This document shows, piece after piece, positions 25,919 to 55,082 of a stretch of DNA of 64,000 bases (position 1 is the stretch's first letter; the number at the start of each line of letters is the position of its first letter). Both the position numbers and the translations under genes were made by a program. The notes under the pieces were generated by a model. The model was not told where the DNA came from. It saw nothing but the letters and a program-made list of their open reading frames with translations, and did no database searches. This DNA is from a plasmid, in the sequence record NZ_CP067021.1; one strand, written 5' to 3'.

Positions 25919-25930
25919 ACCACCCCCAAC

Positions 25931-26893: not shown

Positions 26894-26918
26894 ATCTAGC
26901 CCTTTAAAAGAGTTATGA

Positions 26919-27725: not shown

Positions 27726-27728
27726 GAT

Positions 27729-28169: not shown

Positions 28170-28225
28170 TAAAGGGTATTTAGATTCTATCTTAAAACAC
28201 CCTAAATGTTTTTATTTAAAATTAA

Positions 28226-33840: not shown

Positions 33841-36800
33841 TTAGAAAGATAATTGCTGGATTTCTTGATCGTTATCTAGGGTTTTACCCTCATGTAACTC
33901 AGCCTTATAAGCTGGCTCTTCTGCAGGATTAAGCATACGGTTAATTTCATTTAAAAAGTAACCATTACCATCAGGAAGCTTAGATTTTAAATCCAAAAAG
34001 GCAGCTTCAATTTTGGTTGTACTGTCCAGCTCGTCAACAAAGCGTTCAACATCCTTGAGATCAAGCGCAAATCTAAACTCATTACGGCCTGGCTCAGTAA
34101 AGTGGATGTTCAACGATTCATCTGTTTTACCGCCTTTAGGATCATGGAATACGTTGGTATTCGACATAAAACGATTGAACTGTTTTGCAACAGATTTTAC
34201 CGTCACATTAAAGCAGTCTGAACCGTTGTAGTAGAACTCAATACTTGCTTTCTTGTACGGGAAATTAACCTTAGTACCCACATAGTTATTGCGGTTGAAA
34301 TCAATGTTTACAGGCAATTGATTAAAGAAGTTCGCAATCTCTTTAACTTGCTTAAACGTCACTTGGTTTTCAAGAGAGCTTTCAAACAAGTCAGTTGGTG
34401 TATTTGATGGCAATAATAACGCACGGTTACGCATACCATCAGCATCGGTAAATATAACGGTTGAATGTCGTAGATCTAGTGAGCTGACAATCTTATGTGC
34501 CTTGAACATATTGCCCGTTAAGGTAATCGCTTGTCGTGTGACATCACCAGACGGCGCTTTTTCAAAATAGGTACGCGTATAACGGGAATAATTGTTTTGT
34601 TCAGTAAATAAGTTCACCAAGGGTTGACGATCCTCAACATGACGTCTATTCACATCAGCATAAGAATAAAATTCAGGATTGAAGCGTTTTAGGATAATAC
34701 GTCCTTTTTCACTCACTGGAGCTACCCAATCCAAGTCTTGCTTGGCATTTTGCATGGTGTAATTGATCAGTGGAACTTTAAACGACTTCTTATCACCAGG
34801 GTAAACCAAATCAAGCTTAACCGCATTCGGTGTGATTGCACCTCCACGTAACGGCGGTAGGTCTAGACGTAGCAAAGCACCTGTTTTGTGATCTGGCGTC
34901 ACTTCATCATCAAAAAGACTAGGTTTTGAGATAAGGAACAATAACCCATGCGCTGAATGACCTTCTTTTTCGTTCCTTTCCATAGAACGAGCCAAGAATT
35001 TTAGATCCTGAACAATTCGATACATGCGATCAAAGTTAGAGGTCAAAATAGGATCATTGGCTAGATAAACCGCTTCAGCTACTTTCTCAAAGGCATCTGC
35101 AGAGTGATCATCAGGTTTACGAAATTGAATATCATCAATGTGTTTTACATTGGCTTCAACAACACCGAAATGATCAAATACTTCGTGTCGATAATCACGA
35201 ATTACTTCACCACGCATTTGCCCACTTTTGAAAAATAACTTTTGCTTAGCAAAGCCTTCATATTTTTGGTACATCAATGCCTCAAAGTTATAGGCATAGT
35301 GTAGTAGTCCGTTTACCGTTTCATTGATGTTTTCATTGATACGTTTAAATTGACGCACCAGATAATCATCACTTTCTTTGAACATGAGTTTTAGATTGTC
35401 AGCACGTAATGGCTCAACATGTTCAATGTATTGCAGACCTTCAAAACGCACAGGTAGATCAAAGGTATTGATCTTGGCTGCTTCTGTTTCTGAAGTCACG
35501 GTAAAGAAGTTGTCCTTCACTTCAAACTCACGGACTTTTTTAGCTTTCCAGTCTAAAAAGTTGGTCTTGAGTGGGTTACGACCCAACAAGTCTAATTCAC
35601 GGATCTTATCGTTATAGTCAACAACCAAGTCTTGATAAACCTGTTCTTGCTGACTAATCGGCATCAAAATCAGTTTAGATAGCAACTGGTTCACATGATA
35701 GTTTTGCGCCGTGCGATACGATGGTCCTTTTTCATCATCCGAAATATCAATATCAAGTGTGTTCGCCAAGTTCACGTTATTTTTCAAATAGTCCAACGAT
35801 ACCCGGTTGCCAATGTAGTTGAGCATGTCAGGATAATCGTTTTCGTTAAACTTGGTTTCTGAGTTGGCAGAGACGTTCGCTGATAGGGTAGACAGTTTAC
35901 GCATCATCATTAAGTGCATACGTGTTTCTGCTGGAATACCCGAATCTACTGTCGTCATAATCGGATGTGATTCTTCACCACGGCGACCCACACGACCGAT
36001 CATCTGAATCGTATCGGTAGAGTTCTCAGGTTTTTGCAAGAAAAACAACTCACGTTGGCGCAAGTGATCCGATGGAATTGTAGGATCAGGGTTTTTGGCT
36101 GCATGTAGAGAAATACCCGTACAACCAGAGCGAGTCACAATAACAACATCGATTTCACCAGATTGGAATTTTGATTGAACCAAAATCTTACCTTGTGTCG
36201 TATTGTTCTCTTGTTTATTAACCTTCCATTTGCCGTCTCTTGTTTCCGTTAAGTGGATCTGACGGCCAGAGATTTCATCAATCTTGAAGCCAGCTTTTGT
36301 CACCTTGTTACGTAGTACGTCCAAAGGCATCAAAGGTAGATCAGGGAACTTTTGAATCTTTTCTTTGATACGATCCAAAATGATTTTATACGGACTTACC
36401 ACTGGATCGCCGTTTTCATTAAATGTCACTTCCGTACTGAGCTTCTTAACGAACGAGTTACCGTAGTTATCTTCAGCTTTCACCACATCGATGCGATCTA
36501 ACATCACTTCAAGCAAGTCACGGAATTGTGGGAGTTCATCTAAAACAGAAATTTGACTTTGCAGATAGCTACCGCGCTTATCTTCAAGCTTAGTCAATTC
36601 CTTTTGAATATTTTTCGCTGCTTTTTCATCGCCAGCGTCACGGTTTTCTTTGATCATGAGTTTTTGAAGCTCATTTTCAAGAAATTCAATTTCTGACGAT
36701 ACCGACTTGAAGTTATTAAACGCTTTTTCTTTTTCAGGCGAATCAGCGGTAACGTCTTGCGCCGTATCTGCTTTTAAAATCGCTTCCATGCGACTTTGCA

Positions 36801-39800
36801 TCAAAATGTTGAATAGACTCTCACCCGTATTTTCCAAACCAATCACGGGCTTTCTACCCTCATGTAATGCCTGAATCACAGCATCACTTGTAGAGTCAGT
36901 TTTCAATGCCAATAGGAATTGCTTTTGGATCTGGTACATTCGAGATCCAAAGTTCATCACACTCAAACTTAAACGGTTTTTCGGATCGTCTGAATCCTGA
37001 TGAAAGTCTAAATTGGCAACAGCATCATCATCATTGGCAATGTTTTCTAGCGCATCGAGGCGAATATCTTTAGAAAATTTCACCATGTCCGTCAAGATGT
37101 CAGAAAGAACATCTGAGTAATTGTGAAATTTCTTAATTTCCTCTTCAGTTGGCACAAAGGTTTGAATGGTAATGTGCGAGAGATCTTGCTCTCTACGAAT
37201 CATGGCAGAGCTGTCTACCAAACCTTCAGAAATAAACTCCAAAATTGGACCATCTGCATTTTCGATAACCTTTTGTAAGTCATTACGAGATACGGATCGA
37301 GGGAACAATTTATGGAAGAATTCAAGATTTTCAGGTTTCTTAATTGCCGATGCAGACTGGAAATTAATTAGATTGGTCTGATCAATAACATCTAAGAAAA
37401 ATTGACTTGTAGCTGATTTCAAGGATGCTGCACGGTGCGTTTCATCCATCACCAAAACAGTGTCTTGATTAATAAAACGAGTCAATAACGCACGTTTCCG
37501 GTTTGGTCGGTTAAATTGGCTATACGTTGCCAATACCAAGTCATGTTGCGCTGGAATATCTTCAATTTCCTTAGGCAGATCTTGGCCAGTGAATAAAACC
37601 TCTTCAGTACCAAAGCGGTTAATCACAGCATCCGAGTTAAAGATAAACGGATCTTTAAAGAACTTGTCACTGTCTGTAGCAACAATATCACGCCAAATGT
37701 CGTTCAAGAGTTGCGTTGTATCTGTAAGGAAAACAGGGGGCTTTCCTCTTAACGCACTATATCGTAAACACGCAGCTGCAATACGACCTTTACCTAAACC
37801 CGTCTGGTCGCCAATAAGCACAGGTAAGTTTTGGTCAAAACGTAAAATGATATGGGCAACCGCATCGACCTGTTCACATGCAAAAGCGGACTTTAGTGCA
37901 TCAAAATTGTCATATTGCAATTTCTTAGCGACATAGGCATCAACAAGAGTAGGGTAGTTACCATTATCGACTTCAGCTTGGAAATTGATACCCCCAAAAC
38001 CTAATACATTTTGGATGTGTGTAGTCAATTGAGCATTTGCCTGATTAATCGCTTTAATCTGGTTTTTAGCCACTAAAGCAATTGGCTCAGATGCCATAGA
38101 CATCGGTATATACTTAACTTGGTATATATTTTCCGGAGTTGGTTCTGTTGTGTTTTCAGCATTAGGAACAGGAACAATCGGCTGTAAATTTGATTGGTCA
38201 GATTCAACAGTCGGTTCTTCTTTTTGCTCAGTACCGATCGCTAATTCAGAATTTAACTTAGCAATCTCTTCAGCAGTTAAACCCGGTTCCTGTTTTACTT
38301 GCTCTACCGCTGGTTCTTCAGCTGGTGTTTGTTCAGGTGTTTCACCCTCATTGGTCGCCGTGGTATCACCTACTTGAAGATTAACGTCATCGTCAAGGTC
38401 TTCATCCTGATTTTGGTTCTCGTGCGGATTCTTTACCTCAGGCACGAAATCATTGTCATTTTCATTTTCAAACGTTGGTGTAGCTTCAGTTGGTGTAGGT
38501 ACATCATCATCTGAACTGGTTGTTTGCGTACTAACTTCAACGGTTCCAAAGTCAAAAGAAACTTTATTCGGTTTTGATTTAGGTTTACGACCAAACATCG
38601 GTTTTGGTTTGACAGCTTCCTCTTGCTTAATCTCTTCTTCTTTAGCGACCACGACTTCATCAAACATAGTGACTGCAGACGTAGGCGTTACACTTGATGC
38701 AATATCTTCAAGTGGCGAAACAGGCTGTTCATCACCTAGACTGGCAAACAAATCGTCATTTTCTTTTTCAACAGGCTTAACCTCAACAACAGGTTCAACC
38801 ACTGGTGCTTGTTGTGCTTGTTGCTCAACTGGAGTCGGAGTAGTTGGCTTGAAGTATAGATCCTTATTCGGATTCAAACGATTATAGATTACGTTATTAG
38901 CCCATCCCCAAAGTTCGTCATAGTCCGTAATGACTTTCAACTTATCTGGTACCACAGAAGATTGGTAAGTTTGTAGTAACGCTTGTTCGTTTTTACGATT
39001 GCCTACCACTAACATACGAACATTTTGATTAGCGCCGTTTCGTGCATATGCATTGCCGTGGATTTCTACAACCGCCTCAACTTCATAATGCTTATAGAGA
39101 TAATTAAGTAAATTCTTTGATTTACGCTCAACCGTACCATCTGAAATCTGTTTATCTGAGCCAATAATGAAAACTGAACGCCCTTGATCGTTTCGTGCGT
39201 TTAGTGATTTAACCAGAATGGCATGGTCCAATTTATCCGTACTGAACCAGACGTTTTCTGATGGATCTACCAATAATGGGTTTGGATCTACGCCGTTACG
39301 CTGTTGAACCAAAATTGGTGCAACACGTTCTAGTTTATCCATAGCACCAAAAGGAGGGTTGGCAATCACATAGTCAACTTTTTGCTTAAACGTTTGCTCA
39401 AAATCAATTTGTGTAGCATCTGCAGTAACAACCGTGCATTCATAATTTTGAGTCAGTGCTTTTGTACGTTCAGCACGTTTGGGATCTAACTCAACCGCAT
39501 AGACAGAAGCATTACGCTCTTGGGTTAATAAACCGATTAAAGATCCATTACCCACAGTTGGCTCGAGCACGGAAAAGTTTTGTTTTGTTCGGTTATCACC
39601 CTCAATCAATAAGCGCTGAGCCACAAGTGACATCGGGATTGGAGTCGAATATTGCTGTAACATACGAATCGTATTGTTTCGCATGGTCTTAGTCGGCATG
39701 CGATTGTATAACGCTAAACTCGTTTTAAATGAGCTCTCAGTAAAATCAAGCTCACCTAACTTTTCGACCATCACTGTTTCAAGCGCTTCTTCTGCAGTAT

Positions 39801-40473
39801 GGATCTGTTTATCTGTTACCTTGGATACATCAACGTCAGCATTTTTGGCTTGCGTGATTAGAGCTAAAAACTTTAAAAAGTCCTGGTGATTATGGCTCTT
39901 TGTTTCATGTTCTAATTGATAGATATAGCCTCTTAAGCATTCTTTTAAATCTTTTTGCTTGGTCGCACGTAAGTACAGACTAGACGGCTGATCATTAGGA
40001 CCTTCAGGTATTTGCGTACCTTGGGCATTCACGTAAAAACGGTTATGAGCTGAAGCATAGATTTTGTTGCCATCAGAGTTATAACCGAGTGGAGTTGCAC
40101 TATTCAACGCAACGTTCAATCGTTGTGGCACCAATGTTTTTGCTTGGGCATTGAATAAATCATGCAATTCTTGGCGAGTCGCAAGCACACTACGGATAAA
40201 TTCTTTTGGAATACCCAAAACTTCATGAAACAGTCTTGGTTTGATCGTTTCATTCAAATTGTATTGATACAAGTGACCGTCAAAGTGAGGATAAGCCTCA
40301 AACTTCATCGGTGTAAAACCAATGTTATTCAAATTTTCTTTAGATAGTTTTTTTTGAACGTCCAATAAAAGTAATTGGCTATCCGTCTGGCCAACACGCC
40401 GTACATCGAGATATACACCAGCTTGTGATAAGTCGATCCATTTAATTTTTTCGTTTAAATCATGAGTAGTCAT
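33841..40473 (-). CDS. DarB-like giant fusion protein, 2210 aa: N-terminal gamma-class N6-adenine DNA methyltransferase, then an acidic Pro/Thr/Glu-rich linker, a DExH (SF2/SNF2-like) helicase and a C-terminal domain of about 700 aa of unknown function
   Basis: Methyltransferase motif I (VLEPTVGNGSL) followed by motif IV (VIANPPFG, DNA about 39345-39365). Helicase motif I (TGLGKGR, about 37771-37815), motif II (VMDETHRA, about 37421-37455), motif VI (QMIGRVGRRG, about 35971-36003). Low-complexity linker about 38150-38900. N-terminal KWIDLSQAGVYLDV signature. Confidence 0.9.
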   Translation of the reverse strand: MTTHDLNEKIKWIDLSQAGVYLDVRRVGQTDSQLLLLDVQKKLSKENLNNIGFTPMKFEAYPHFDGHLYQYNLNETIKPRLFHEVLGIPKEFIRSVLATRQELHDLFNAQAKTLVPQRLNVALNSATPLGYNSDGNKIYASAHNRFYVNAQGTQIPEGPNDQPSSLYLRATKQKDLKECLRGYIYQLEHETKSHNHQDFLKFLALITQAKNADVDVSKVTDKQIHTAEEALETVMVEKLGELDFTESSFKTSLALYNRMPTKTMRNNTIRMLQQYSTPIPMSLVAQRLLIEGDNRTKQNFSVLEPTVGNGSLIGLLTQERNASVYAVELDPKRAERTKALTQNYECTVVTADATQIDFEQTFKQKVDYVIANPPFGAMDKLERVAPILVQQRNGVDPNPLLVDPSENVWFSTDKLDHAILVKSLNARNDQGRSVFIIGSDKQISDGTVERKSKNLLNYLYKHYEVEAVVEIHGNAYARNGANQNVRMLVVGNRKNEQALLQTYQSSVVPDKLKVITDYDELWGWANNVIYNRLNPNKDLYFKPTTPTPVEQQAQQAPVVEPVVEVKPVEKENDDLFASLGDEQPVSPLEDIASSVTPTSAVTMFDEVVVAKEEEIKQEEAVKPKPMFGRKPKSKPNKVSFDFGTVEVSTQTTSSDDDVPTPTEATPTFENENDNDFVPEVKNPHENQNQDEDLDDDVNLQVGDTTATNEGETPEQTPAEEPAVEQVKQEPGLTAEEIAKLNSELAIGTEQKEEPTVESDQSNLQPIVPVPNAENTTEPTPENIYQVKYIPMSMASEPIALVAKNQIKAINQANAQLTTHIQNVLGFGGINFQAEVDNGNYPTLVDAYVAKKLQYDNFDALKSAFACEQVDAVAHIILRFDQNLPVLIGDQTGLGKGRIAAACLRYSALRGKPPVFLTDTTQLLNDIWRDIVATDSDKFFKDPFIFNSDAVINRFGTEEVLFTGQDLPKEIEDIPAQHDLVLATYSQFNRPNRKRALLTRFINQDTVLVMDETHRAASLKSATSQFFLDVIDQTNLINFQSASAIKKPENLEFFHKLFPRSVSRNDLQKVIENADGPILEFISEGLVDSSAMIRREQDLSHITIQTFVPTEEEIKKFHNYSDVLSDILTDMVKFSKDIRLDALENIANDDDAVANLDFHQDSDDPKNRLSLSVMNFGSRMYQIQKQFLLALKTDSTSDAVIQALHEGRKPVIGLENTGESLFNILMQSRMEAILKADTAQDVTADSPEKEKAFNNFKSVSSEIEFLENELQKLMIKENRDAGDEKAAKNIQKELTKLEDKRGSYLQSQISVLDELPQFRDLLEVMLDRIDVVKAEDNYGNSFVKKLSTEVTFNENGDPVVSPYKIILDRIKEKIQKFPDLPLMPLDVLRNKVTKAGFKIDEISGRQIHLTETRDGKWKVNKQENNTTQGKILVQSKFQSGEIDVVIVTRSGCTGISLHAAKNPDPTIPSDHLRQRELFFLQKPENSTDTIQMIGRVGRRGEESHPIMTTVDSGIPAETRMHLMMMRKLSTLSANVSANSETKFNENDYPDMLNYIGNRVSLDYLKNNVNLANTLDIDISDDEKGPSYRTAQNYHVNQLLSKLILMPISQQEQVYQDLVVDYNDKIRELDLLGRNPLKTNFLDWKAKKVREFEVKDNFFTVTSETEAAKINTFDLPVRFEGLQYIEHVEPLRADNLKLMFKESDDYLVRQFKRINENINETVNGLLHYAYNFEALMYQKYEGFAKQKLFFKSGQMRGEVIRDYRHEVFDHFGVVEANVKHIDDIQFRKPDDHSADAFEKVAEAVYLANDPILTSNFDRMYRIVQDLKFLARSMERNEKEGHSAHGLLFLISKPSLFDDEVTPDHKTGALLRLDLPPLRGGAITPNAVKLDLVYPGDKKSFKVPLINYTMQNAKQDLDWVAPVSEKGRIILKRFNPEFYSYADVNRRHVEDRQPLVNLFTEQNNYSRYTRTYFEKAPSGDVTRQAITLTGNMFKAHKIVSSLDLRHSTVIFTDADGMRNRALLLPSNTPTDLFESSLENQVTFKQVKEIANFFNQLPVNIDFNRNNYVGTKVNFPYKKASIEFYYNGSDCFNVTVKSVAKQFNRFMSNTNVFHDPKGGKTDESLNIHFTEPGRNEFRFALDLKDVERFVDELDSTTKIEAAFLDLKSKLPDGNGYFLNEINRMLNPAEEPAYKAELHEGKTLDNDQEIQQLSF

Positions 40474-40504: not shown

Positions 40505-42139
40505 TTAAAAAGTCATGTCGTTATAGACATCAGAAGTCGCAGCCTTTTCTTGGCTTTTCTTAACATCCATTTCTGGCTGTCTGACTTTCATCATTAACTC
40601 TTGCGGATCAGGTAAAAGATCGTGGTTGAAGTTCTTAGATAACGGACTATCGATTGAAGCTTTATGTTGCTGTACATGCTCTACCGTAATTTCTGAAAAG
40701 TTCAACGCATTCATACGGGTTTGAGTAAGTTCAACAGGCTCGATAAACGAGACAAAACAATTATTCGAGTTCCGTTGGTGTGGTTGAATAACAATAAACG
40801 CTTCAGCAAATTGCTGTTTTGCATGCGTCAATTTATTCATGGTCTGACGATCAACTTGACTTAAAAATTGAGGATTTAAGTCGTGCGGTTTTGGATTGCC
40901 GTAGTCATCGGTAAATTGATTCACTAGGGGAGGTGCACCAACACCACGAACACCCTCACCAGTACGTAAATCTATTTCTGGATCTACCTTGCGAAAACCA
41001 GCGTGAGGCGTTTTATTGTTGAAAAATTTCTTTAAGAACGTGTCTTTGTAAAGCGCACCTAGTTGTAGTTGTTGGCCATGATAAACCTCAGGCAGTAATT
41101 TTTGACTCACCAAGCCAGCGTAAAGACGTTTTAAATTTTGATTTTTTTCTTTGTCTACATCTTCATTGTAGAACACTTTAATTTGTCGATCGCCAAGTAA
41201 TGCAAACAGGGCAATACGGGCCTGGTCCATAACATAAACGTTCTGAGCCTGTTTATCGAACTGGTCTTTTTCATACTGGTTGGATGGTACAAAATTTGGA
41301 TCAAATGTTGCGGTGTGAAAGTCATTGCCGTTCAAAATATCTTTGATACTTTCAATCGGATCTTTAGCAACCCGATAAGACTTTTTAGTTTTATCAATAC
41401 CGCCACGTTCCATCAACGGATCTGGCTTAGCGAATTGCTTAACACTTTCACGATCAGCACTGTCATAGGTTGGAATCAATGGGATTGTAGTTAATACAGA
41501 ACCAGACTCATAGCGCACAACAATTTTTGAAAATGGAATGCGCTCAGGTTGGTTGTCAGTACTATTCGATAAAGATTTAACAAGAAGCTGTAAATTATTT
41601 TTAATAATAGCGTTATGAAGTGCTGGAGAATTAATTTTTACATTGGGCACTTGCATATGTGCTGCATCTTCAATGATTTGAGCTTTAACAAAGAAATCGC
41701 CGTTTTTTTGTTGATGCACATTGATAGAAGTGACTGCTTTGATTAATTGTGAATTCGGGTTGTTACTCATTACGTTGCACCACTGAGCAACATAAGTTTT
41801 ATAACCGTCAAGAGATTCGTAGGGTGAGTCAACACATTTGTCAAAACAGATAATTCGACCACGGTTAGCACCGCGATTATGTGTGTCTAATGAAGTACGT
41901 TGGTTACGTCCAGAATCAAATTTTGCGTGGACTTCATCTACTGAAACATTCTCAGTATGATGCTTGTTGAGTTTATTAATGATCTTCGTGAATTCTTCAG
42001 ATGAACTCATTCGTATGCGAACTGGTTCATTGGTAGACATATCAAAGCCGTATGCATACAGCTCGTCTTGTTCATCATGTTTGTAAAATTGATCTACAGT
42101 CATGACGATACGTTTAATCGTATTATCACTTTTACTCAT
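40505..42139 (-). CDS. Hypothetical protein, 544 aa; first gene of the long minus-strand block, next to the origin-like region (candidate initiator or element-specific function)
   Basis: ORF, 31-nt gap to the MTase-helicase gene; no recognised motif. Confidence 0.65.
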   Translation of the reverse strand: MSKSDNTIKRIVMTVDQFYKHDEQDELYAYGFDMSTNEPVRIRMSSSEEFTKIINKLNKHHTENVSVDEVHAKFDSGRNQRTSLDTHNRGANRGRIICFDKCVDSPYESLDGYKTYVAQWCNVMSNNPNSQLIKAVTSINVHQQKNGDFFVKAQIIEDAAHMQVPNVKINSPALHNAIIKNNLQLLVKSLSNSTDNQPERIPFSKIVVRYESGSVLTTIPLIPTYDSADRESVKQFAKPDPLMERGGIDKTKKSYRVAKDPIESIKDILNGNDFHTATFDPNFVPSNQYEKDQFDKQAQNVYVMDQARIALFALLGDRQIKVFYNEDVDKEKNQNLKRLYAGLVSQKLLPEVYHGQQLQLGALYKDTFLKKFFNNKTPHAGFRKVDPEIDLRTGEGVRGVGAPPLVNQFTDDYGNPKPHDLNPQFLSQVDRQTMNKLTHAKQQFAEAFIVIQPHQRNSNNCFVSFIEPVELTQTRMNALNFSEITVEHVQQHKASIDSPLSKNFNHDLLPDPQELMMKVRQPEMDVKKSQEKAATSDVYNDMTF

Positions 42140-42397
42140 TTCTTAAATTCCACGCTTTATATTTTTGATTGCTGGTCATTGACTCAAGCTATTTATAAAA
42201 TACTACAAAACCTCATTGGTATATACTAAGGAGGCAAATAAAAAATTAAAAAATATATTAAAAAGTTTAAGAGTAAATTTTTAAAAAGAAATTTTTTGTT
42301 TATTATCTTTCTAATTAAGGGAAGTTAATTAGGGACATTTTTTATGCTTATTTTTCATGATATTACAGGATTAGTACGGAAAAACACAAATGGTACG

Positions 42398-42439
42398 AGC
42401 GAAAATCAAATTCATTTGAGCGCAAATTGAATTTGAATT
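42398..42439. repeat. Pair of 21-bp direct repeats (GCGAAAATCAAATTCATTTGA / GCGCAAATTGAATTTGAATTT), iteron-like
   Basis: Read directly; same unit as the pair at 42660-42701. Confidence 0.6.
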
Positions 42440-42477
42440 TTTAGAAAATAAGGCGTTTTTAGCTGGTTTTTGATGTT

Positions 42478-42508
42478 TTTATCCACTTTCCTATTAAATT
42501 CTATCCAC
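42478..42508 (+). promoter_or_regulatory. Two DnaA-box-like sites (TTATCCACT at 42478-42486, CTATCCACA at 42500-42508), same orientation, 22 bp apart
   Basis: Each matches the consensus TTATCCACA at 8 of 9 positions. They lie between the two 21-bp repeat pairs, downstream of a very AT-rich stretch at about 42200-42340. Confidence 0.45.
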
Positions 42509-42659
42509 AAATTAAGTTCTTGTATATTAGAATGAATTTAAAAATATGAGTAAAATATTGTTCATTTTTTAGCTTTTTGCAATATTGGAAATTTGCAAAC
42601 TAGCAAGTGTTGTAAGTCGCTGTTTATAATAAAATTAAATAGAATAAAAAATACTTCCA

Positions 42660-42701
42660 GCGCAAATTAAATTCATTTGAGCGCAAATTAAATTCAAAAC
42701 G
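42660..42701. repeat. Pair of 21-bp direct repeats (GCGCAAATTAAATTCATTTGA / GCGCAAATTAAATTCAAAACG), iteron-like
   Basis: Read directly; 17-19 of 21 identical to the units at 42398-42439. Confidence 0.6.
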
Positions 42702-42811
42702 TTGCGGATAACTTCTCCAATTTCCTGAGAGCCTTGATAATAAAGACTTTCAGATTTTATGAGGAATAGCCCTTATATATGACCCAACGATCGCTATTTA
42801 GCTTGTTTTAC

Positions 42812-43712
42812 GACAAATCAATAACTTACGCCATTAGGACGGAAGAAAGTTTACAACCCATTTATAAAAAACTTTCGCTGAGTTCAGACTATAACAGAAA
42901 ATCAATGAGTTACGCCATTAGGACGGAAGAAAGTTTACATCCACTTATAAAAAACTTTCGCTCGTATTTTGACACAACTATAAATCAATAACTTACGTCA
43001 TTAGGACGGAAGAAAGTTTACAACCCATTTATAAAAAACTTTCGCTGGAAGTTAGGTACAGCCAAAAAGTTATAACCTAACCTTAAAACATACTAAACAT
43101 ACTATCTATGATAGTTGAGCTATTGGATCTGGACAAAAAAGTAAAATCAATAACTTACGCTATTAGGACGGAAGAAAGTTTACAACCCATTTATAAAAAA
43201 CTTTCGCTCGTATTTTGGCACCACTATAAATCAACAACTTACATCATTAGGACGGAAGAAAGTTTACACCCACTTATAAAAAACTTTCGCTCGAAATTTG
43301 CCAGCAATATAAATCAACAACTTACATCATTAGGACGGAAGAAAGTTTACAACCCATTTATAAAAAACTTTCGCTCGAAATTTGCCAGCACTATAAATCA
43401 ACAACTTACATCATTAGGACGGAAGAAAGTTTACAACCCATTTATAAAAAACTTTCGCTCGAAATTTGCCAGCACTATAAATCAACAACTTACATCATTA
43501 GGACGGAAGAAAGTTTACAACCCATTTATAAAAAAGTTTCGCTCGAAATTTGCCAGCACTATAAATCAACAACTTACATCATTAGGACGGAAGAAAGTTT
43601 ACAACCCATTTATAAAAAAGTTTCGCTCGTATTTTGGCACCACTATAAAACAATAACTTACGTCATTAGGACGGAAGAAAGTTTACAAACCATTTATAAA
43701 AAAGTTTCGCTG
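42812..43712. repeat. Array of ten 84-bp tandem direct repeats (3 copies, a unique gap of about 78 bp, then 7 copies), each with palindrome GAAAGTTT-N16-AAACTTTC. Candidate iterons or partition centromere.
   Basis: TTAGGACGG unit starts at 42834, 42917, 43001, 43163, 43247, 43330, 43414, 43498, 43582, 43666. Copies 5-9 are nearly identical. Confidence 0.85.
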
Positions 43713-43874
43713 GGTGCCTATCTTGAGCACATATTTATTTGATCAAGTATTACATTGGTTAACTTACATTGTAATTGTGAATATTACTCATATAAGGCAC
43801 TGTTTTTCATAGTCTTATTTATTAAGAAATTACTGTTAAAAATGCTTTTAATCGTAGTCTAATTAACGAATTGA

Positions 43875-43883
43875 TGCTATAAT
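43875..43883 (+). promoter_or_regulatory. Extended -10 promoter element (TGcTATAAT) upstream of the first plus-strand gene
   Basis: TGnTATAAT read at 43875-43883, about 12 nt before the ORF start at 43895. No good -35. Confidence 0.35.
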
Positions 43884-43894
43884 GTCTACTCAGA

Positions 43895-44392
43895 ATGCCT
43901 ATGGGAATTCGAGATATGCAATATCAATCATTTAGTCTTAGACATCAAAAAATACTCATTGACTTCAATGTGTTTAGCTCTGGCTCGTCTGATATTTTGC
44001 TAAAAGGTGTTTTATCTGCCGAATTGCTTATTCTAGTTGATAATTTAAATGCATTTTATTCTGCAGAAGACGGTAGATACGTTGTATCAGCTGAAAAAGT
44101 TAACCACGTTACAGGTCTAGATTTTAATAAGAAAACTATCAACCAGATCATGCGTGAAGCTTGTGATTTATCATTTATGATTGATACAGATGCGAAGCAA
44201 GCTGCAGCACCTATGATTGACGAAATTCAAATCTTATCAAGTGGCGATATTACTTTTAAACTCACTAAAAGCTTTGATTTTTTTAGAAATTCTCTTAGTT
44301 TTAAAAGCATATATGAGAAGCTACCATACAGGTTCACTACTTCTAAACTAGAGTTACCGCAGATCGGTCAACAAATAATGTTAATTGCGTAA
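43895..44392 (+). CDS. Hypothetical protein, 165 aa; first gene rightwards of the origin-like region
   Basis: ORF followed by a hairpin terminator. Start may be the downstream Met at 43916. Confidence 0.5.
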   Translation: MPMGIRDMQYQSFSLRHQKILIDFNVFSSGSSDILLKGVLSAELLILVDNLNAFYSAEDGRYVVSAEKVNHVTGLDFNKKTINQIMREACDLSFMIDTDAKQAAAPMIDEIQILSSGDITFKLTKSFDFFRNSLSFKSIYEKLPYRFTTSKLELPQIGQQIMLIA

Positions 44393-44394
44393 TT

Positions 44395-44418
44395 AAGCCT
44401 CTGACGAGGCTTTTTTAT
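44395..44418 (+). terminator. Rho-independent terminator
   Basis: AAGCCTC-tgac-GAGGCTT followed by TTTTTATT. Confidence 0.55.
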
Positions 44419-44559: not shown

Positions 44560-46350
44560 ATGCAAGATTCTTCACAAGTCTGCATAAGTAAAGGAATTTC
44601 AGAAGATGAAATTTTTGGACTATCGCAGTCAATCAAAGACTCAATTATTAATGCCGAAACAAAAACCATGGATCTCTTGGGTTACGGCAACAAAATCAGT
44701 AATTTCATAGTCGAATGTTATCTAGATATTCCAGTTGTTGATCAATTCATTTTTTACTTAATGTTGGTGAATGCCAAAAATAAGTATGCACATCAGCTGC
44801 AGCGCGTTATCGCTGAAAAACCTGAATTATCCCAAATTGAAGCATTACAACTAGCGAACAACTTTGTTCTGAATTTTGAATACATCCGTCAAATTCTTTT
44901 ATTCAAAAATAAAGCTAATTACCTTAGCAATGGCCGTATCAAATCTTTGGCATGGAATACGCTAAATAGTGTTGGTAAAGTGATGCTACCAATGAGCTCT
45001 TTACGCCAAATGGACAGCGAACCATTTTCAAGAAATGACGTAGACAGCGTAACTCATAAAAGAATGTTTGCCAGTACGGGCTATTTTGAATTAGATAACA
45101 ATGCGTTTATTTGCTATCAGCTTGAAGAAACGTTGATTGCCAATCTATCTGAATTAGATTTTGATAAAAAGGGGCGCTACACAGTTCTCGACACTTTAAC
45201 GGTTCTTGGATTTAAGGACCGTTTTGATCTTTATATGTATAACTTGATGAAGATCAATGAGTTTCGTGGCGAAGTGGTTATTCCTTACATTGACTTCAAA
45301 GCATTAACCGAGTTTTCAGTAGAATTTAAATACAAAGCAAGTGATTTTTACCGTAAACGACTTCTTGTTTCATTAGAAAGACTGAATAACAATCCATCTA
45401 TTGAATTATTTATTTCTGTTAAGTATGAACCATGCAATAAGCGTACACCAGATCGTGACAATTTTTGCAATTATCGTTTTCAGATTCAGTTGAAGTCCAA
45501 CTATCGTAAAGCGCTTAATACATTAAATGAAATGTGTGCAAAGGTTCAGGATGAACAGGGCAATGAGCTTAAAATCAGTAATGCGCTCTTCACTTCAGCA
45601 ATTCGATTGAATAATGGTGAACCTGAAAAAGTAATAGAACTTGTTAAGGATCGTTTAGCTGCTTATACAACTAAGAATGGACCATCATATTTAGCTAAAA
45701 ATCTTAATTTGGTTGCGTCTTATGTTACGCGAGCTCTAGAAGATCTATATAAAAGTAATCACTTCTTTGAAAGATTCCTAAACGATATGAAGCAAGCAGA
45801 TAATTTACTTTATCTGAGAAATCGTGATAAGAAAGTTGAGATCGAAAACAAAAGTGCATCTACTTTCTCAAGCGAATTCATTAATATTCGCGACAAAGTT
45901 GATGTTACCACTTGTGAAATTCTTACAAACGCTGAGTACATTTCAAAGAAAACGGAAGCTACTGTAATTATTGATTATGCTTTCATACGTAATTCTATTT
46001 TTATTACACATCCTCATTTGCGCCACCAGCGAAATGCAGACGAGAAAAAATACATAGATCTCGTGTGTGAAAGCACAAAGCTTTGCCAAATATTCTTTGG
46101 TACGGGTAATGAAAATAAAAAAACGTTAACTCAAAACTATTTAACAGAACTCCTGTTTGAACATTTTTTTGATGATAATTTCCACTTGAACTCAGATGTA
46201 TTAAAGAATCTTCTAAAAAAAGATAAGGACTATTGGGTACAAGAAAAGCAAAAGACATTTATGCGGTTGTGGAAACTTGCAAATGAGTTCAGTTTAAAAG
46301 CTATTAGTCCAGCGAACTACAACGGTAAAGAGAGTTCAGACAATGAATAA
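44560..46350 (+). CDS. Hypothetical protein, 596 aa (candidate replication or partition-associated protein by position only)
   Basis: 1791-nt ORF 850 bp right of the repeat array; no diagnostic motif recognised. Confidence 0.65.
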   Translation: MQDSSQVCISKGISEDEIFGLSQSIKDSIINAETKTMDLLGYGNKISNFIVECYLDIPVVDQFIFYLMLVNAKNKYAHQLQRVIAEKPELSQIEALQLANNFVLNFEYIRQILLFKNKANYLSNGRIKSLAWNTLNSVGKVMLPMSSLRQMDSEPFSRNDVDSVTHKRMFASTGYFELDNNAFICYQLEETLIANLSELDFDKKGRYTVLDTLTVLGFKDRFDLYMYNLMKINEFRGEVVIPYIDFKALTEFSVEFKYKASDFYRKRLLVSLERLNNNPSIELFISVKYEPCNKRTPDRDNFCNYRFQIQLKSNYRKALNTLNEMCAKVQDEQGNELKISNALFTSAIRLNNGEPEKVIELVKDRLAAYTTKNGPSYLAKNLNLVASYVTRALEDLYKSNHFFERFLNDMKQADNLLYLRNRDKKVEIENKSASTFSSEFINIRDKVDVTTCEILTNAEYISKKTEATVIIDYAFIRNSIFITHPHLRHQRNADEKKYIDLVCESTKLCQIFFGTGNENKKTLTQNYLTELLFEHFFDDNFHLNSDVLKNLLKKDKDYWVQEKQKTFMRLWKLANEFSLKAISPANYNGKESSDNE

Positions 46351-46945
46351 TAAACTTTATTTATGTGCAATTTTTACGGCTACTATATTGAGTAGTAGTG
46401 CAAATGCCGATTTTAGTGATTGGTATAAAAAAGCAACTTCAAATGAAGATTCAACTCAGCAAGTGCCAGCTCAACAACAGCAAGCACCTGGTCAAATTCA
46501 ACAGCAAGCACCAGTTCAGGTTCAGCAACAGCCGATACAGCAAAGACAATATAATTCTAATCGGAACACCACAGCTACGCGTTACCAAAACAATAATGCA
46601 AATGTCACTGGTGATTCTGGCCTTGAAGCACGAATGAATAACTTGAATTCGACCATTGAGAATCTAAACAAGTCATCAAAAAGTGGTGACAACCTCACGA
46701 ATAACTATCTAAATATTGTTCAATTCATAGTGATAAACGAAGAAACACGTAAATTGGATGGTAAAGACAATACATCACTGATCAATAACATGTTGGCTGG
46801 TATTGTGAGTTGTCAGAATAAATACAAAGTCGATGTTATACAAAAAGTGAATAATCAACTCCCAAGAGATGTTGCTAACACCGTACAACGGTATTTAAGC
46901 CAGAATGGACGCTCTATTGGTGCAAACGGCAACTGTTTATACTAA
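46343..46945 (+). CDS. Secreted Gln-rich protein, 200 aa
   Basis: N-terminal signal peptide MNNKLYLCAIFTATILSSSANA, then QQQAPGQIQQQAPVQVQQQ low-complexity. 8-nt overlap with the upstream gene. Confidence 0.6.
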   Translation: MNNKLYLCAIFTATILSSSANADFSDWYKKATSNEDSTQQVPAQQQQAPGQIQQQAPVQVQQQPIQQRQYNSNRNTTATRYQNNNANVTGDSGLEARMNNLNSTIENLNKSSKSGDNLTNNYLNIVQFIVINEETRKLDGKDNTSLINNMLAGIVSCQNKYKVDVIQKVNNQLPRDVANTVQRYLSQNGRSIGANGNCLY

Positions 46946-50317: not shown

Positions 50318-50980
50318 TTATAATTTTGCGAATACTTCAGGATTGTCATTCATAAACTGTTCAATGAAATCATTGTCTAATTCGACATGTTTTGGAAGCT
50401 TCTCATGTTCACGAACAATGGATTTTATAGATTCAATATTTTGCTGATTGAAAACAGGTGTTGTACGGCTCTTATAGCCAGTATCAGCCATCGCATAGCG
50501 ATCATCAAACATACCTGAAGAGGTATTAGAATCGACTTCTGAGTCGCTTATAGATAGTGTTAAGTTGCGGTCTTCAGCTAACTTTAAAATGAATTCGTCA
50601 GAGATAAAGTTACGTAGCTCATGCAGCATAGATTCAACTTTATTGTGTTTAAAAAGCACCTTTGCAATTGAACGACAAGATAAGAAACCTTTTGTGATGT
50701 TTAGATCTAGTAATTTTTGAGGAATGATTGGATCGCTTTTCTTGTTGCTATTCGCGATCTGTTCAACTTCTTCATCAGTCATAGAAGCTATAATGTTTTT
50801 AAAGAAATTGCCATATTGAAACTTTTCAATTTTCTCCAGCATTGTCACTTGTTCTGTATCTAATAAGCAAAAAGAAATAGGTTTAAGCTTGCGTTGGTCG
50901 GTTTTGCTTAAACTGCCATTTTGGTTTAAGCGGTTCTCTTTGGTTTTAGCGTTAGTTTTAGAGTTAGTCATTTTAAACAC
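50318..50980 (-). CDS. Hypothetical protein, 220 aa
   Basis: ORF convergent with the upstream plus-strand genes. Confidence 0.55.
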   Translation of the reverse strand: MFKMTNSKTNAKTKENRLNQNGSLSKTDQRKLKPISFCLLDTEQVTMLEKIEKFQYGNFFKNIIASMTDEEVEQIANSNKKSDPIIPQKLLDLNITKGFLSCRSIAKVLFKHNKVESMLHELRNFISDEFILKLAEDRNLTLSISDSEVDSNTSSGMFDDRYAMADTGYKSRTTPVFNQQNIESIKSIVREHEKLPKHVELDNDFIEQFMNDNPEVFAKL

Positions 50981-51135
50981 CTTTCAATATGTTTTAAACT
51001 TTGGTTAATACCAATAATCATATTATAAGTGGTTTTAGCTAAAATACAAAAAATGAACATTTTGTTTTTTTAAAAAAATCTTTTAAATGTTTTTCGTATA
51101 TACTATAAGAATATCTATCTTAAAAGGTATAACTC

Positions 51136-51558
51136 GTGATTAAAACTGATACAGGCGATACGGTTGGAGGGGGTTTAACGAATCCTCAGGATGAAGTTCT
51201 AGCATTGTTAGAAGAGTGCTTAAACTCTGAACAATATACAGCTCGTATTACTTATATTTGTGAAGATGGCGGTCAATTAGTAGGTAAAAAGGCAGCTTTA
51301 AAGATTTTAAAGGAACAAGAGGACAATGGTTTAATGCTGGTTCCAATACCAGTCTTAGGAAAACAACTAAGAGTCTGGAGTGGTTTAAGTAAAACCAAAA
51401 TGTCTAGTCACACAGGATTGTACAACAATATACAGTGGTCAAAGTTTGAAAGTGGCGAAAAGTTAATAACAAAGCAAGCGTGGACATTACTTCAACTTAG
51501 ACTTGGGGTTCATCCAAAATACAAATTGGTTTTAAAAAATGAATTAGATGTCGAGTGA
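51136..51558 (+). CDS. Hypothetical protein, 140 aa (GTG start)
   Basis: ORF with AAAGG RBS 9 nt upstream of GTG. Confidence 0.5.
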   Translation: MIKTDTGDTVGGGLTNPQDEVLALLEECLNSEQYTARITYICEDGGQLVGKKAALKILKEQEDNGLMLVPIPVLGKQLRVWSGLSKTKMSSHTGLYNNIQWSKFESGEKLITKQAWTLLQLRLGVHPKYKLVLKNELDVE

Positions 51559-52073
51559 ATTATATGTTAGTGAAATTAGCCCTTAGTGGTCATGCTTCTC
51601 CAGAAGCTTTAAGTAAATTTGAACGTATCAAAGCGTATGTGCCAGATAGCGCACCTGTTTTGGTCACATACTTTAATAAACAAGTTTTATTAAGTGATCT
51701 ACTGGTTAATTTTTCTAATTTTTTACCATCGCTCGAAATCACAAAAGATAAAGACATGCTGGTTACGATTAGAGGAAATGAAACACCTTTAGTCGAATTT
51801 ATTGTCAATTTAAAACTATACAGCATGAAATTAGGCAAACTTTTCTTTGAATTTGAGAATCAATTTAAAGAAAAAGAGCAAGACTTTAAGGGCTTTATTA
51901 AACGTCACAAACTTAAAGGTTTTGATCATGCCAATTTTGTTAATTACGTGAAACTAGGTGCATATGATAGTGCTTTAGACATTATCAAACACCAGTACGA
52001 AAGCGTTAAAAAAACATTCTTTGTACTGTTTAAAGATCGTTTCACCCTATTAGAAAGCAAGGGTTTTATTTAA
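51555..52073 (+). CDS. Hypothetical protein, 172 aa
   Basis: GTGA overlap with the upstream gene; alternative ATG at 51564. Confidence 0.5.
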   Translation: MNYMLVKLALSGHASPEALSKFERIKAYVPDSAPVLVTYFNKQVLLSDLLVNFSNFLPSLEITKDKDMLVTIRGNETPLVEFIVNLKLYSMKLGKLFFEFENQFKEKEQDFKGFIKRHKLKGFDHANFVNYVKLGAYDSALDIIKHQYESVKKTFFVLFKDRFTLLESKGFI

Positions 52074-52082
52074 GGATATTCT

Positions 52083-52571
52083 ATGGAAATGTTAGATCCA
52101 TCAAACACAAACCCTGGGCTCTTTTTAGTCATAATGGCTACGGCAATTGGTACCATACTTTTTGGTTTTTTAATTGTCGCTTTAATTGCACGATATAAGT
52201 TCAAGATTAGAGTTACGGTATCTAGTTTTATAGCTGCAGTTACTTTATCTGTATTTAGCTTTATATGCTTTGGTTCACTTGGTCCGATGGAACCTAAATA
52301 CAGTACTTCAGTTGTTCAGCTTTATGCGTTGGGCTTACTGGCTGGTACTTTAATATTAAATATAGTTCTTCTGAAATTATTCAGCCCTAAAACTATTGAA
52401 CAGTTAGCTTTGAAAGGTTTTAATAAGTCAGAAAATGAACAAAAAGAGCATTACAAAAACATCTTAAAAGAGTTTAAATGTATTACTGATTTGGAAGATA
52501 AAAACAAGCTTAATAAGCGCAGTTTTAACTTGTTAAATGTTTTTAAACATAAAGGAAAACAAAATGTTTGA
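52083..52571 (+). CDS. Membrane protein, 162 aa (three hydrophobic helices)
   Basis: ORF with hydrophobic N-terminal two-thirds. Confidence 0.5.
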   Translation: MEMLDPSNTNPGLFLVIMATAIGTILFGFLIVALIARYKFKIRVTVSSFIAAVTLSVFSFICFGSLGPMEPKYSTSVVQLYALGLLAGTLILNIVLLKLFSPKTIEQLALKGFNKSENEQKEHYKNILKEFKCITDLEDKNKLNKRSFNLLNVFKHKGKQNV

Positions 52572-53343
52572 TTTTAAGATGAAATCTTTGTGTGTTTTGG
52601 CTGTTGCCGGATCTCTTTTAACTGGTTGCGTATCTAGTACTATTGATGGAATGGGTTCTAAACGCAAACAAATCATGTTGTATTCTGAAAAAGAATATCT
52701 TCAGCAAAGTACTCAGTCTTACAACAACATCATCACGACTGCTAAACAGCGTGGATTGATTGTGAATAACGCTCAAGTAAATAGAGTAGCAAAACGTCTT
52801 ATCGCACAAGTTCCACATTATCGAGCTGACGCAGCAAATTGGAATTGGGAAGTTAATACAATCCGAGATAATGAAATCAACGCGTTTTGTCTATCTGGAG
52901 GCAAGATCGGTGTGTTGACTGGTTCTATCACAAAAATTAATGCAACTGATGATGAATTGGCTGCACTGATCGGCCACGAAATTGCACATGCTTTACGTGA
53001 TCATGGGCGTGAAAAGGTAAGTAAAAAGCTTTTAACTGGTTTAGGTGTGCTTGCAGCTAGTTCGGCTGGTCTTGGTGACATGGTTGTATCTGGCACAAGT
53101 TTACTAGGCGATTATGGGGTTAACTTACCTGGTTCGCGCAAACTTGAAAGTGAAGCGGATCTTCTAGGTGTTGATATTATGGTTCGTGCTGGTTACAACC
53201 CACAGGGCGCAGTCAGCTTTTGGAATAAAGTAGTAGCCCAAGAAAAACAGGGCACTAAAATTGATTTCTTATCAACGCATCCTACTTCAGAAAAAAGAAT
53301 TGTAGCGATCCAAGAATACATCAACCAAAATTACAGGAAATAA
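52564..53343 (+). CDS. M48-family zinc metallopeptidase lipoprotein
   Basis: Lipoprotein signal with lipobox LLTGC. HEIAH zinc-binding motif (LIGHEIAHALRDHG), as in LoiP/YfgC-type peptidases. AAGGA RBS 7 nt upstream of ATG at 52564. Confidence 0.75.
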   Translation: MFDFKMKSLCVLAVAGSLLTGCVSSTIDGMGSKRKQIMLYSEKEYLQQSTQSYNNIITTAKQRGLIVNNAQVNRVAKRLIAQVPHYRADAANWNWEVNTIRDNEINAFCLSGGKIGVLTGSITKINATDDELAALIGHEIAHALRDHGREKVSKKLLTGLGVLAASSAGLGDMVVSGTSLLGDYGVNLPGSRKLESEADLLGVDIMVRAGYNPQGAVSFWNKVVAQEKQGTKIDFLSTHPTSEKRIVAIQEYINQNYRK

Positions 53344-54328: not shown

Positions 54329-55060
54329 GGCTCTAGACTAGCAAAATGATTATGTTAGTCTAGAATCATGATAGAAAACAGTAAATTAAGTCACTACAAG
54401 ATTAAAAAAATTATTCAATGCTTTTGTGTTGATATTCCTGCTTCCAAAACAGCCTTATTACTCAATTTAAATCGTAATACGATTAACTATTGGTACATGC
54501 TTTTTAGAGAAACTATCTATGATCATCAAACAGATTTAAGAGCTAAGTTTGTTGGTTCAATAGAAGTAGATGAAAGCTATTTTGGAGCGAAAAGGCAACG
54601 TGGGTTTCATGGAAAGTTAAAGTGTGGTCGTGGGACTCTAAAACAGCCAGTATTTGGAATATTCGAACGTAATGGGCGCGTCTATACTGAAATCGTACCT
54701 GACTGTAAAATGAAGACTTTACAAGAGGTTATCATTGGTAAAGTTTCACTTGAGAGTGTGATTTATAGTGATGGATGGCGTGGCTATAATGGTCTTGTTG
54801 ATGTGGGTTATTCAAAGCATTTTAGGGTAAATCACGGAGCAAATGAGTTTGCTAGAGGAGAATGTCATATAAATGGAATAGAATCATTTTGGAGCTTTTG
54901 TAAAAGAAGGCTAGCAAAGTTTAACGGCATATCAAAAGAGTACTTTGATTATCATCTTAAAGAAACTGAATGGCGTTGGATGAGGGAACCTAATGAGTTA
55001 GCAACTGAGCTGTGGAACCTCATTAGGTAAAATTAAGTGTAAATCTGCTAGTCTAGAGCC
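54329..55060 (+). mobile_element. IS1595-family insertion sequence (732 bp) with 15-bp perfect terminal inverted repeats and a 7-bp target-site duplication ACATCAA
   Basis: Left end GGCTCTAGACTAGCA (54329-54343) is reverse-complementary to the right end TGCTAGTCTAGAGCC (55046-55060). Direct repeats ACATCAA at 54322-54328 and 55061-55067. Confidence 0.8.
54368..55030 (+). CDS. IS1595-family DDE transposase, 220 aa
   Basis: Single ORF filling the IS. Sequence (..IEVDESYFGAKRQRG..VFGIFERNGRVYTEIVPD..YSDGWRGYNGL..) fits the IS1595/ISPna2-type transposase pattern from memory. Confidence 0.8.
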   Translation: MIENSKLSHYKIKKIIQCFCVDIPASKTALLLNLNRNTINYWYMLFRETIYDHQTDLRAKFVGSIEVDESYFGAKRQRGFHGKLKCGRGTLKQPVFGIFERNGRVYTEIVPDCKMKTLQEVIIGKVSLESVIYSDGWRGYNGLVDVGYSKHFRVNHGANEFARGECHINGIESFWSFCKRRLAKFNGISKEYFDYHLKETEWRWMREPNELATELWNLIR

Positions 55061-55082
55061 ACATCAATATATGGAGTATTTT

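Follow-up and report, generated by a model that had tools for sequence, protein, structure and literature searches.

An 84-bp tandem repeat array and an upstream origin-like module in the backbone of Acinetobacter group III-4a megaplasmids

Does a large array of long tandem repeats on a plasmid belong to its replication region, or is it a centromere for partition? This question is raised by ten tandem units of about 84 bp in a 64,000-nucleotide stretch of plasmid DNA (record NZ_CP067021.1; the whole stretch is called the window, and positions count from its first letter), which a first-pass annotation had described as either an iteron array or a centromere of the sopC/parS kind. The present analysis favours, with a probability of roughly 0.55, the former: the array would be an initiator-binding, iteron-type block of long repeats in the replication region of the group III-4a megaplasmids of Acinetobacter, and not a centromere. 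The iteron half of the earlier description gains from an origin-like module upstream, from a sequence core common to that module and the array, and from a neighbouring gene with a predicted winged-helix (WH) product, while the centromere half is disfavoured.

The window is backbone DNA of the group III-4a megaplasmids of Acinetobacter, such as pALWED1.1 and pXBB1-9, to which it is at least 99% identical. The 10 kb around the array match 67 plasmid records, all from Acinetobacter, of which 65 match at an identity of at least 95% and 32 with a query coverage of at least 80%; the matching plasmids are 200-400 kb in size. The array itself recurs, at an identity of at least 99%, in 65-67 Acinetobacter plasmid records. 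A phage origin of the array region was rejected, as no phage record matches these 10 kb and PHROGs was uninformative. Megaplasmids of the group occur in more than a dozen Acinetobacter species, with tet(X), NDM and OXA among their many resistance genes. Their replicon has so far lacked an experimental definition: most members of the family had no Rep detected by Ghaly et al. (2020), pALWED1.1-type plasmids were typed under 'no identifiable rep' by Lam et al. (2022; PMC9927589), which is what typing schemes still return, and no later experimental work on the replicon was found in a literature search.

The repeats and their reading as iterons were published in 2021, so the feature is already known, and the gain of the present work is refinement rather than discovery. 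Mindlin et al. (2021; PMC8490738) describe ten tandem repeats of 83-84 bp, at a distance of 830 bp from where a 1791-bp putative rep gene begins; they term them iterons by analogy with plasmid R478, give no experiment, and state that the repeats occur in all plasmids of the group in unchanged number. In the window, 848 bp separate the end of the array from the start of the 1791-bp open reading frame (ORF), which encodes a protein of 596 amino acids (aa), and the putative iterons of pALWED1.1, as described in that paper, are the same element as the array analysed here. The refinements that may be new are the division into an origin module and an array, the IHF box, the small gene with a WH1-like product, the rejection of a published link to PF01051, the variable copy number and the identification of a candidate sopC-like centromere; their basis is sequence analysis and one structure model of moderate confidence.

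Each array unit combines an IHF-consensus box with two inverted half-sites

Tandem Repeats Finder reports the array at 42815-43711 (period 84, 10.8 copies, 82% matches, score 1010), and it is the sole large tandem array in the window. When the repeats are anchored on their left arm, GAAAGTTTAC, which begins at 42845, 42929, 43012, 43174, 43258, 43341, 43425, 43509, 43593 and 43677, ten units are obtained, the number counted at first reading. The successive spacings are 84, 83, 162, 84, 83, 84, 84, 84 and 84 bp, and the 162-bp step bears out an insert of about 78 bp that had been placed between copies 3 and 4. The array and its parts, as delimited by dissection of the units, are as follows.

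42815-43712, no strand: tandem array, period 84 bp, ten unit cores and one 78-bp insert
42815-42879, + strand: unit 1 core (65 bp), with IHF box at 42816-42828, left arm GAAAGTTT at 42845 and right arm AAACTTTCGCT ending at 42879
42899-42962, + strand: unit 2 core (N15; unit of 83 bp)
42982-43046, + strand: unit 3 core
43047-43143, no strand: long spacer after unit 3, made up of the usual ~19 bp and the 78-bp insert
43144-43208, + strand: unit 4 core
43228-43291, + strand: unit 5 core (N15; unit of 83 bp)
43311-43375, + strand: unit 6 core
43395-43459, + strand: unit 7 core, identical to unit 6
43479-43543, + strand: unit 8 core, right arm AAAGTTTCGCT, C to G
43563-43627, + strand: unit 9 core, right arm C to G
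43647-43711, + strand: unit 10 core, IHF box with one mismatch, right arm C to G

Each unit is composite, consisting of a 65-bp core, laid out as AAATCAAYAACTTAC - 15 bp - GAAGAAAGTTTAC - N - AAAAACTTTCGCT, and a variable spacer of ~19 bp. In order, an IHF-consensus box is followed after ~15-17 bp by two inverted half-sites and then by the spacer. The half-sites are not equivalent, the left one reading AAGAAAGTTT and the right one, on the minus strand, AGCGAAAGTTT. The 13-bp box fits WATCAANNNNTTR, the E. coli IHF consensus, exactly in nine of the ten units and with one mismatch in the tenth. This consensus is matched 22 times in the window, where 8.3 +/- 3.1 matches would be expected; the array accounts for nine, one per unit and all on the + strand. 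The 52-bp stretch that had been set down as an AT-rich spacer is thus more than a spacer, as it contains this conserved box. Mindlin et al. take the whole 83-84-bp unit as the iteron, whereas the unit described here is a composite of box and half-sites; as far as the relevant sections of that paper show, it mentions neither the IHF box nor the inverted half-sites, nor the 16-mer/DnaA-box module and the 165-aa gene described below.

The half-sites contain 8-bp arms that lie 15-16 bp apart in every unit and are perfect in 7 of the 10. The palindrome GAAAGTTT-N16-AAACTTTC is matched eight times at up to two mismatches, against 0.10 expected from shuffles. A 32-bp palindrome with a 16-bp spacer had been ascribed to every unit; it is exact in five, while units 2 and 5 have N15 between the arms and a length of 83 bp, and units 8-10 have the right arm AAAGTTTC instead of AAACTTTC (at 43535, 43619 and 43703). 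Since AAASTTT is nearly palindromic, this change of C to G makes the right arm, otherwise inverted relative to the left one, a direct copy of it, and the change has spread through three neighbouring units. The near-identity reported for copies 5-9 holds for units 6 and 7, which are identical, and for unit 8, which differs by 1 bp, but units 5 and 9 differ more.

The number of units varies among sister plasmids whose flanks are at least 99% identical (L001, L017, L018, L020, L021 and L022 were compared). There are 7 units in pAJ_351-2, 9 in pXBB1-9, pAJ_082-2 and pHUAV/AMR-R, 10 in the window, 11 in CRAb2 and 13 in pR4WN_1BD1. The 78-bp insert is missing from L021 and L022 and follows unit 4 in L020. 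The range of 7-13 contradicts the constant number stated in PMC8490738, unless some assemblies are wrong. Such variation in unit number, with the insert present or absent, is easier to reconcile with an accessory or control array than with an origin of exact construction.

Two other readings would make the repeats the template of a repeat protein or of a structured RNA. A period divisible by 3 and the presence of a 182-aa ORF (43108-43656) would suit a repeat protein. Among the sister plasmids, however, the open frame ranges from 58 to 189 aa and is broken by the 83-bp units, so that the ORF is an artefact of the repeats, as the first-pass annotation had supposed. Rfam has no match in the window, nor did ARAGORN find a tRNA there, and the unit folds no better than shuffles (z -0.47 and +0.82 on the two strands). 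Both a repeat protein and a structured RNA are, for practical purposes, refuted. A CRISPR array was also rejected, as what separates one palindrome from the next is itself repeated and not a unique spacer.

The upstream module and the motif it has in common with the array

Upstream of the array lies a group of short sites that was compared with three related lineages, L010, L002 and L003, whose 596-aa proteins are respectively 81%, 61% and 51% identical to that of the window.

42398-42434, + strand: first pair of 16-mers at 21-bp spacing, AGCGAAAATCAAATTC at 42398-42413 and AGCGCAAATTGAATTT at 42419-42434; conserved in L010, L002 and L003
42479-42509, + strand: two DnaA-box-like 9-mers at 22-bp spacing, TTATCCACT at 42479-42487 and CTATCCACA at 42501-42509
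42510-42658, no strand: AT-rich stretch (~150 bp) between the DnaA-box-like sites and the second 16-mer pair
42659-42695, + strand: second pair of 16-mers at 21-bp spacing, AGCGCAAATTAAATTC at 42659-42674 and at 42680-42695
42703-42711, - strand: inverted DnaA-box-like site, TGCGGATAA; TGTGGATAA in L002 and L003

The whole module (42398-42711) aligns with L010, L002 and L003, with the 16-mers and boxes in invariant columns. Each of the three DnaA-box-like sites in the window agrees with TTATCCACA at 8 of 9 positions. At the corresponding sites, perfect copies of TTATCCACA occur in L010 (two direct) and in L002 (one direct and one inverted), while L003 has a perfect inverted box and two direct boxes of the TTATNCACA type. 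The module is thus kept in diverged relatives, while their arrays differ in period and copy number. The AT-rich stretch at 42510-42658 is a candidate DNA-unwinding region; the intergenic region as a whole has a GC content of 0.30, and the 2-kb bin 42001-44000 is the lowest in the window (0.306). The cumulative G-C minimum of the window, at ~44000, also fits the favoured reading of the locus.

As read from the sequence, the layout of the module is that of a textbook iteron origin (for background on such layouts, see PMC4980987). Direct repeats of ~17-22 bp, phased at about two turns of the helix and placed beside a rep gene, mark an iteron replicon, and it is the four 16-mers, in all four lineages, that answer to this description; the 84-bp units are too large for the class, although their half-sites have the core of the 16-mers. 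The DnaA boxes and AT-rich region that accompany iterons are likewise present.

The half-site core, GCGAAAGTT, is the same motif as that of the four 16-bp direct repeats. In the window, GCGAAAGTT occurs seven times, always in right arms of the array, and the 16-mer pattern four times, always in the module; 50 kb of par/tra DNA from a sister plasmid contain neither. The Hamming distance between arms and 16-mers is 2.3-3.7 within the clade of the window and L010 and 1.3-2.1 within that of L002 and L003, compared with 2.8-4.2 between the clades. The arms of an array are therefore nearest to the 16-mers of their own clade, and the half-sites change together with the 16-mers from one lineage to another, a co-variation that points to one protein reading both kinds of site.

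In the diverged relatives, the arrays keep their position and their grammar of a box and an iteron-like motif, while the copy number differs and the period ranges from 67 to 94 bp. The array of L010 has six units of 83-85 bp that differ from one another apart from three blocks, AAATCAnTnACTTA, GAGAAAGTTAGTATA and AnTTTCGCT. In L002, the units are ~94 bp long with the order AATCAATATCTTA, GATGAATTTTAGATGAC, AAACTTCGCT, and seven units of ~67 bp make up the array of L003, where the box goes with one TGCGAAATTTAATTA per unit. The equation of 84 bp with eight helical turns, made at first reading, is correct as arithmetic, but with relatives at ~83-85, ~94 and ~67 bp such phasing is not a conserved requirement. 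The 78-bp insert of the window (within 43047-43143) has an inverted repeat of its own, AAGTTAGGT...ACCTAACCTT, that is like the arm of the L010 lineage (GAAAGTTAGTATA), and the insert may for this reason be a decayed or foreign unit. A scan of genome contigs for more diverged loci returned only two contigs, both 99% identical and each starting or ending inside the array, and one of metagenome contigs returned three short ones, 99-100% identical, none of which extends beyond the 596-aa gene. Five further short contigs, L005, L006, L007, L011 and L030, stop before or inside the repeat region.

The three blocks conserved across diverged arrays argue for specific binding, and so bear on the suggestion that the array is intrinsically curved DNA with no specific binder, or an operator or silencer of the divergent operons that flank it (on the left with a 544-aa gene, on the right with those of 165 and 596 aa). 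The array does lie between divergently transcribed genes, each unit carries an A6 tract that recurs at 84 bp, and initiators commonly autoregulate through inverted repeats. Yet ~10 copies over 900 bp, 183 bp from the nearest gene, exceed what an operator needs, and promoter-like matches in the region are fewer than in shuffles (7, with 12.1 expected). The scan of the region for promoters and terminators yielded nothing above shuffles except a hairpin after the 165-aa ORF. A function of this kind is considered highly unlikely.

The module also bears on the published proposal, set out in PMC8490738, that the 84-bp units are themselves the origin iterons, with the 596-aa protein as a distant Rep_3-type initiator and RepHI2 of R478, with its 80-81-bp repeats, as the model. 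In keeping with it, the array has the candidate rep genes close by, no 2-kb bin of the window is richer in AT than that in which it lies, and its half-sites carry an iteron-like core. However, 100-400 bp upstream there is a better origin candidate, with 21-bp-spaced repeats, DnaA-box-like sites and AT-rich DNA, and it is far more conserved than the array, whose period (67-94 bp), unit number (4-13) and arm arrangement are all variable. Furthermore, the half-sites are inverted; in RepE and in RepA of pPS10, it is dimers, the repressing form, and not monomers that use this geometry. Finally, the similarity of the 596-aa protein to PF01051, on which the proposal draws, could not be reproduced, as detailed in the next section. 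An origin built from the 84-bp units is therefore regarded as unlikely.

The two genes downstream of the array

The genes to the right of the array are syntenic in every lineage examined.

43895-44392, + strand: 165-aa ORF directly downstream of the array; RefSeq start M8, at 43916; predicted WH1-like fold
44560-46350, + strand: 596-aa ORF (1791 bp), the 'putative rep' of Mindlin et al. (2021); orphan family

By sequence, the 165-aa protein has no match in Pfam (seven family members, E up to 10) or in the Protein Data Bank (PDB). Its AlphaFold2 model has a mean predicted local distance difference test score (pLDDT) of 58, with means of 57-83 for blocks of ten residues over residues 41-140, and a secondary structure of helix-strand-helix-helix followed by beta hairpins. 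When the model was compared with the PDB by Foldseek, the top 48 matches were all RctB, RepE or other Rep initiators. The best was to domains 2-3 of RctB (5ubf_A; E=3.3e-4), and others included RepE54, the Rep-DUE complexes 8ac8 and 8aan, and the WH1 domain of MSBI1.176; the template modelling (TM) scores are ~0.4-0.45. The protein has the size of a single WH domain. It is thus predicted, from the model, to have the winged-helix fold of iteron initiators, and is a candidate for the binder of the repeats.

For the 596-aa protein, PMC8490738 gives a link to PF01051 (Rep_3) that is not reproducible here. None of seven homologues matches a Pfam family at E up to 10, the PDB holds no match by sequence or profile, and a hidden Markov model (HMM) search of 1.84 billion representative proteins retrieved eight relatives, all of its own family. 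In hhalign comparisons, the 596-aa family resembles neither the 165-aa family nor an authentic Rep_3 protein from Acinetobacter; against this Rep_3 protein, the two protein families score probabilities of 0.2% and 0.4%. The structure model of the 596-aa protein is unusable (pLDDT 46). By sequence, neither protein can be placed in Rep_3 or another Rep family, and the assignment of the 596-aa protein to PF01051 was rejected; the failure to reproduce this link does not show that the protein lies outside the initiator.

Directly after the 165-aa ORF, at 44395-44412, is a terminator-like hairpin with a 7-bp stem and a T run, so that the 165-aa gene and the 596-aa gene may each have a transcript of their own or be under attenuation. 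Downstream of the 596-aa gene, a 24-bp coding repeat (46457-46532; 2.3-2.7 copies) lies inside a 200-aa ORF that some RefSeq records call a 'transporter', with no evident support for the name.

Partition loci and the role proposed for the array

If the array were a partition centromere, related to sopC, parS or parC, its binder might be a partner of ParM/StbA or belong to an unrecognised system. The resemblance to F sopC is plain: the latter comprises 12 units of 43 bp, in each of which SopB binds a 7-bp inverted repeat, and long tandem units with one inverted repeat each are likewise found here. In P1 parS, an IHF site stands beside protein-binding boxes, as the box of each 84-bp unit recalls, and centromeres tolerate a variable number of units; the copy number of F sopC is variable and dispensable.

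F sopC, however, abuts sopAB, and no such arrangement is seen for the 84-bp array. Pfam detected no par gene in the 31 window ORFs that were scanned (of 54 ORFs of at least 100 aa, with those at 25082-29119 and 50318-53343 left out). The first-pass annotation had called for a search for ParA and ParB homologues elsewhere on the replicon, and in the sister plasmid NZ_CP089039.1 parA, parB and a ParM/StbA gene were found ~55 kb from the 84-bp array. Immediately upstream of parA-parB is a tandem array of 17.5 x 47 bp (L024 13763-14583; NZ_CP089039.1 61762-62582), each unit of which carries the palindrome TTATCAGTCTGATAA. From its structure, this array is a candidate sopC-like centromere for ParAB and a close analogue of F sopC. 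That ParAB has a sopC-like array of its own directly upstream argues against the centromere reading of the 84-bp array, the motifs of which do not occur in the 50-kb par/tra region of the sister plasmid. There are no evident repeats beside the ParM/StbA gene, which leaves that system as a conceivable user. The gene next to the 84-bp array has a predicted initiator fold and not that of ParB, ParR or a ribbon-helix-helix protein, and the arms of the array have their core in common with direct repeats that lie among DnaA-box-like sites. A centromere at the 84-bp array is accordingly judged distinctly unlikely.

A single perfect copy of TTATCAGTCTGATAA, for which shuffles predict 0.00, also occurs in the window at 22604-22618, between the ORFs 15137-22423(-) and 22632-23873(-); far from the par operon, it may be a ParB-type site or an operator.

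For the favoured reading, that of an initiator-binding block in the replication region, the following mechanism can be proposed. The plasmid initiator would be the 165-aa WH protein, possibly together with the 596-aa orphan protein. With host DnaA, it would act on the 21-bp-spaced 16-mers so that the AT-rich stretch opens, and the module would then be the origin proper. On the array, dimers of the initiator would occupy the inverted half-sites, and IHF would bend each unit. The array would thereby form a high-capacity sink for the initiator or a pairing locus. Through titration and handcuffing it would determine copy number and incompatibility, in the manner of incA of P1, incC of F and the 39-mers of Vibrio cholerae chromosome 2.

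A copy-control role of this kind is suggested by analogy with two-site systems, in which short direct repeats, DnaA boxes and AT-rich DNA make up the origin and a second, separate set of initiator sites restrains replication by titration or handcuffing. Module and array may be likened to the 12-mers and 39-mers of RctB in Vibrio cholerae chromosome 2, to oriR and incA in P1, and to ori2 and incC, with the inverted-repeat operator, in F. The 165-aa model is closest in structure to RctB domains 2-3 and then to RepE, which binds inverted half-iterons as a dimer (PDB 2z9o, among the Foldseek matches). Unlike in these systems, each long site here is a core of 65 bp within an 84-bp unit that has its own IHF-consensus box, and all of them are gathered in one tandem array upstream of the rep genes. 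The proteins also differ, in that one of the size of a single WH domain stands beside a 596-aa orphan, neither having sequence similarity to RctB, RepE or Rep_3; and the control function is here a putative one.

Several points weigh against the favoured reading. The division into an origin proper (the 16-mers) and a control locus (the array) rests on analogy, and no binding, replication or incompatibility experiment on the array was found in the literature. The WH assignment comes from a model of moderate quality (pLDDT 58, TM ~0.4-0.45, seven sequences) and lacks support at the level of sequence; as the 596-aa protein fits no family, the binder of the repeats is not pinned to either protein. 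The co-variation of arms and 16-mers is drawn from four lineages in two clades. The IHF box was scored against an E. coli consensus in AT-rich DNA, and in the relatives one-mismatch matches are common. The trough in GC skew is broad, spanning 39.5-48 kb, and gene orientation switches at the same place. Differences in copy number between records could partly be assembly errors.

Should the division into origin module, control array and WH1-like protein be true, it would offer a concrete minireplicon design, an incompatibility or typing marker for these plasmids, and a target for plasmid curing. A bolder proposal, offered tentatively and thought rather improbable, is that the locus represents a new initiator arrangement. 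A stand-alone 165-aa WH1-like protein and the 596-aa orphan would read two half-site grammars, that of the 21-bp-spaced direct 16-mers in the origin and that of the IHF-bent inverted pairs in the array. The 7-13 IHF-bent units would then be a 'super-iteron' array, wrapped into a nucleoprotein body with control over copy number and possibly over plasmid pairing, and a plasmid counterpart, with no sequence relation, of the 12-mer/39-mer logic of RctB.

The analogy with R478 (IncHI2) that gave the repeats their name depends on RepHI2A. In that replicon, according to PMC8490738, which cites Page et al. (2001) and Gilmour et al. (2004), rep is preceded at a distance of several hundred bp by twelve repeats of 80-81 bp. 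What it shares with the 84-bp array, by that account, is repeats of ~80 bp in many copies upstream of rep. The 80-81-bp repeats were not located in R478 1-58000 and 271500-274762. The annotation of the R478 Rep (1-876) places it among RepB-family initiators, unlike the 165-aa and 596-aa proteins. The only large arrays in these stretches of R478 are two with a period of 249 bp, of 4.1 and 4.5 copies and a GC content of 0.51 (L031 4516-5544 and 5974-7095; NC_005211.1 12516-13544 and 13974-15095). They lie in an unannotated 3.8-kb gap between traC and parA and have no 83-bp sub-repeat and no IHF consensus.

Elsewhere in the window, an LPD1 (large polyvalent protein) domain is found in the giant ORFs 6902-14158 and 15137-22423 (2418 and 2428 aa) and in a 546-aa ORF at 61752-63392, and a 2210-aa ORF (33841-40473) has features of a methylase and a strawberry-notch helicase; the remaining scanned backbone ORFs have no Pfam family. 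At 54368-56215, two transposase genes, one IS1595-like and one of the rve integrase-core type, mark an insertion sequence (IS) insertion in the backbone.

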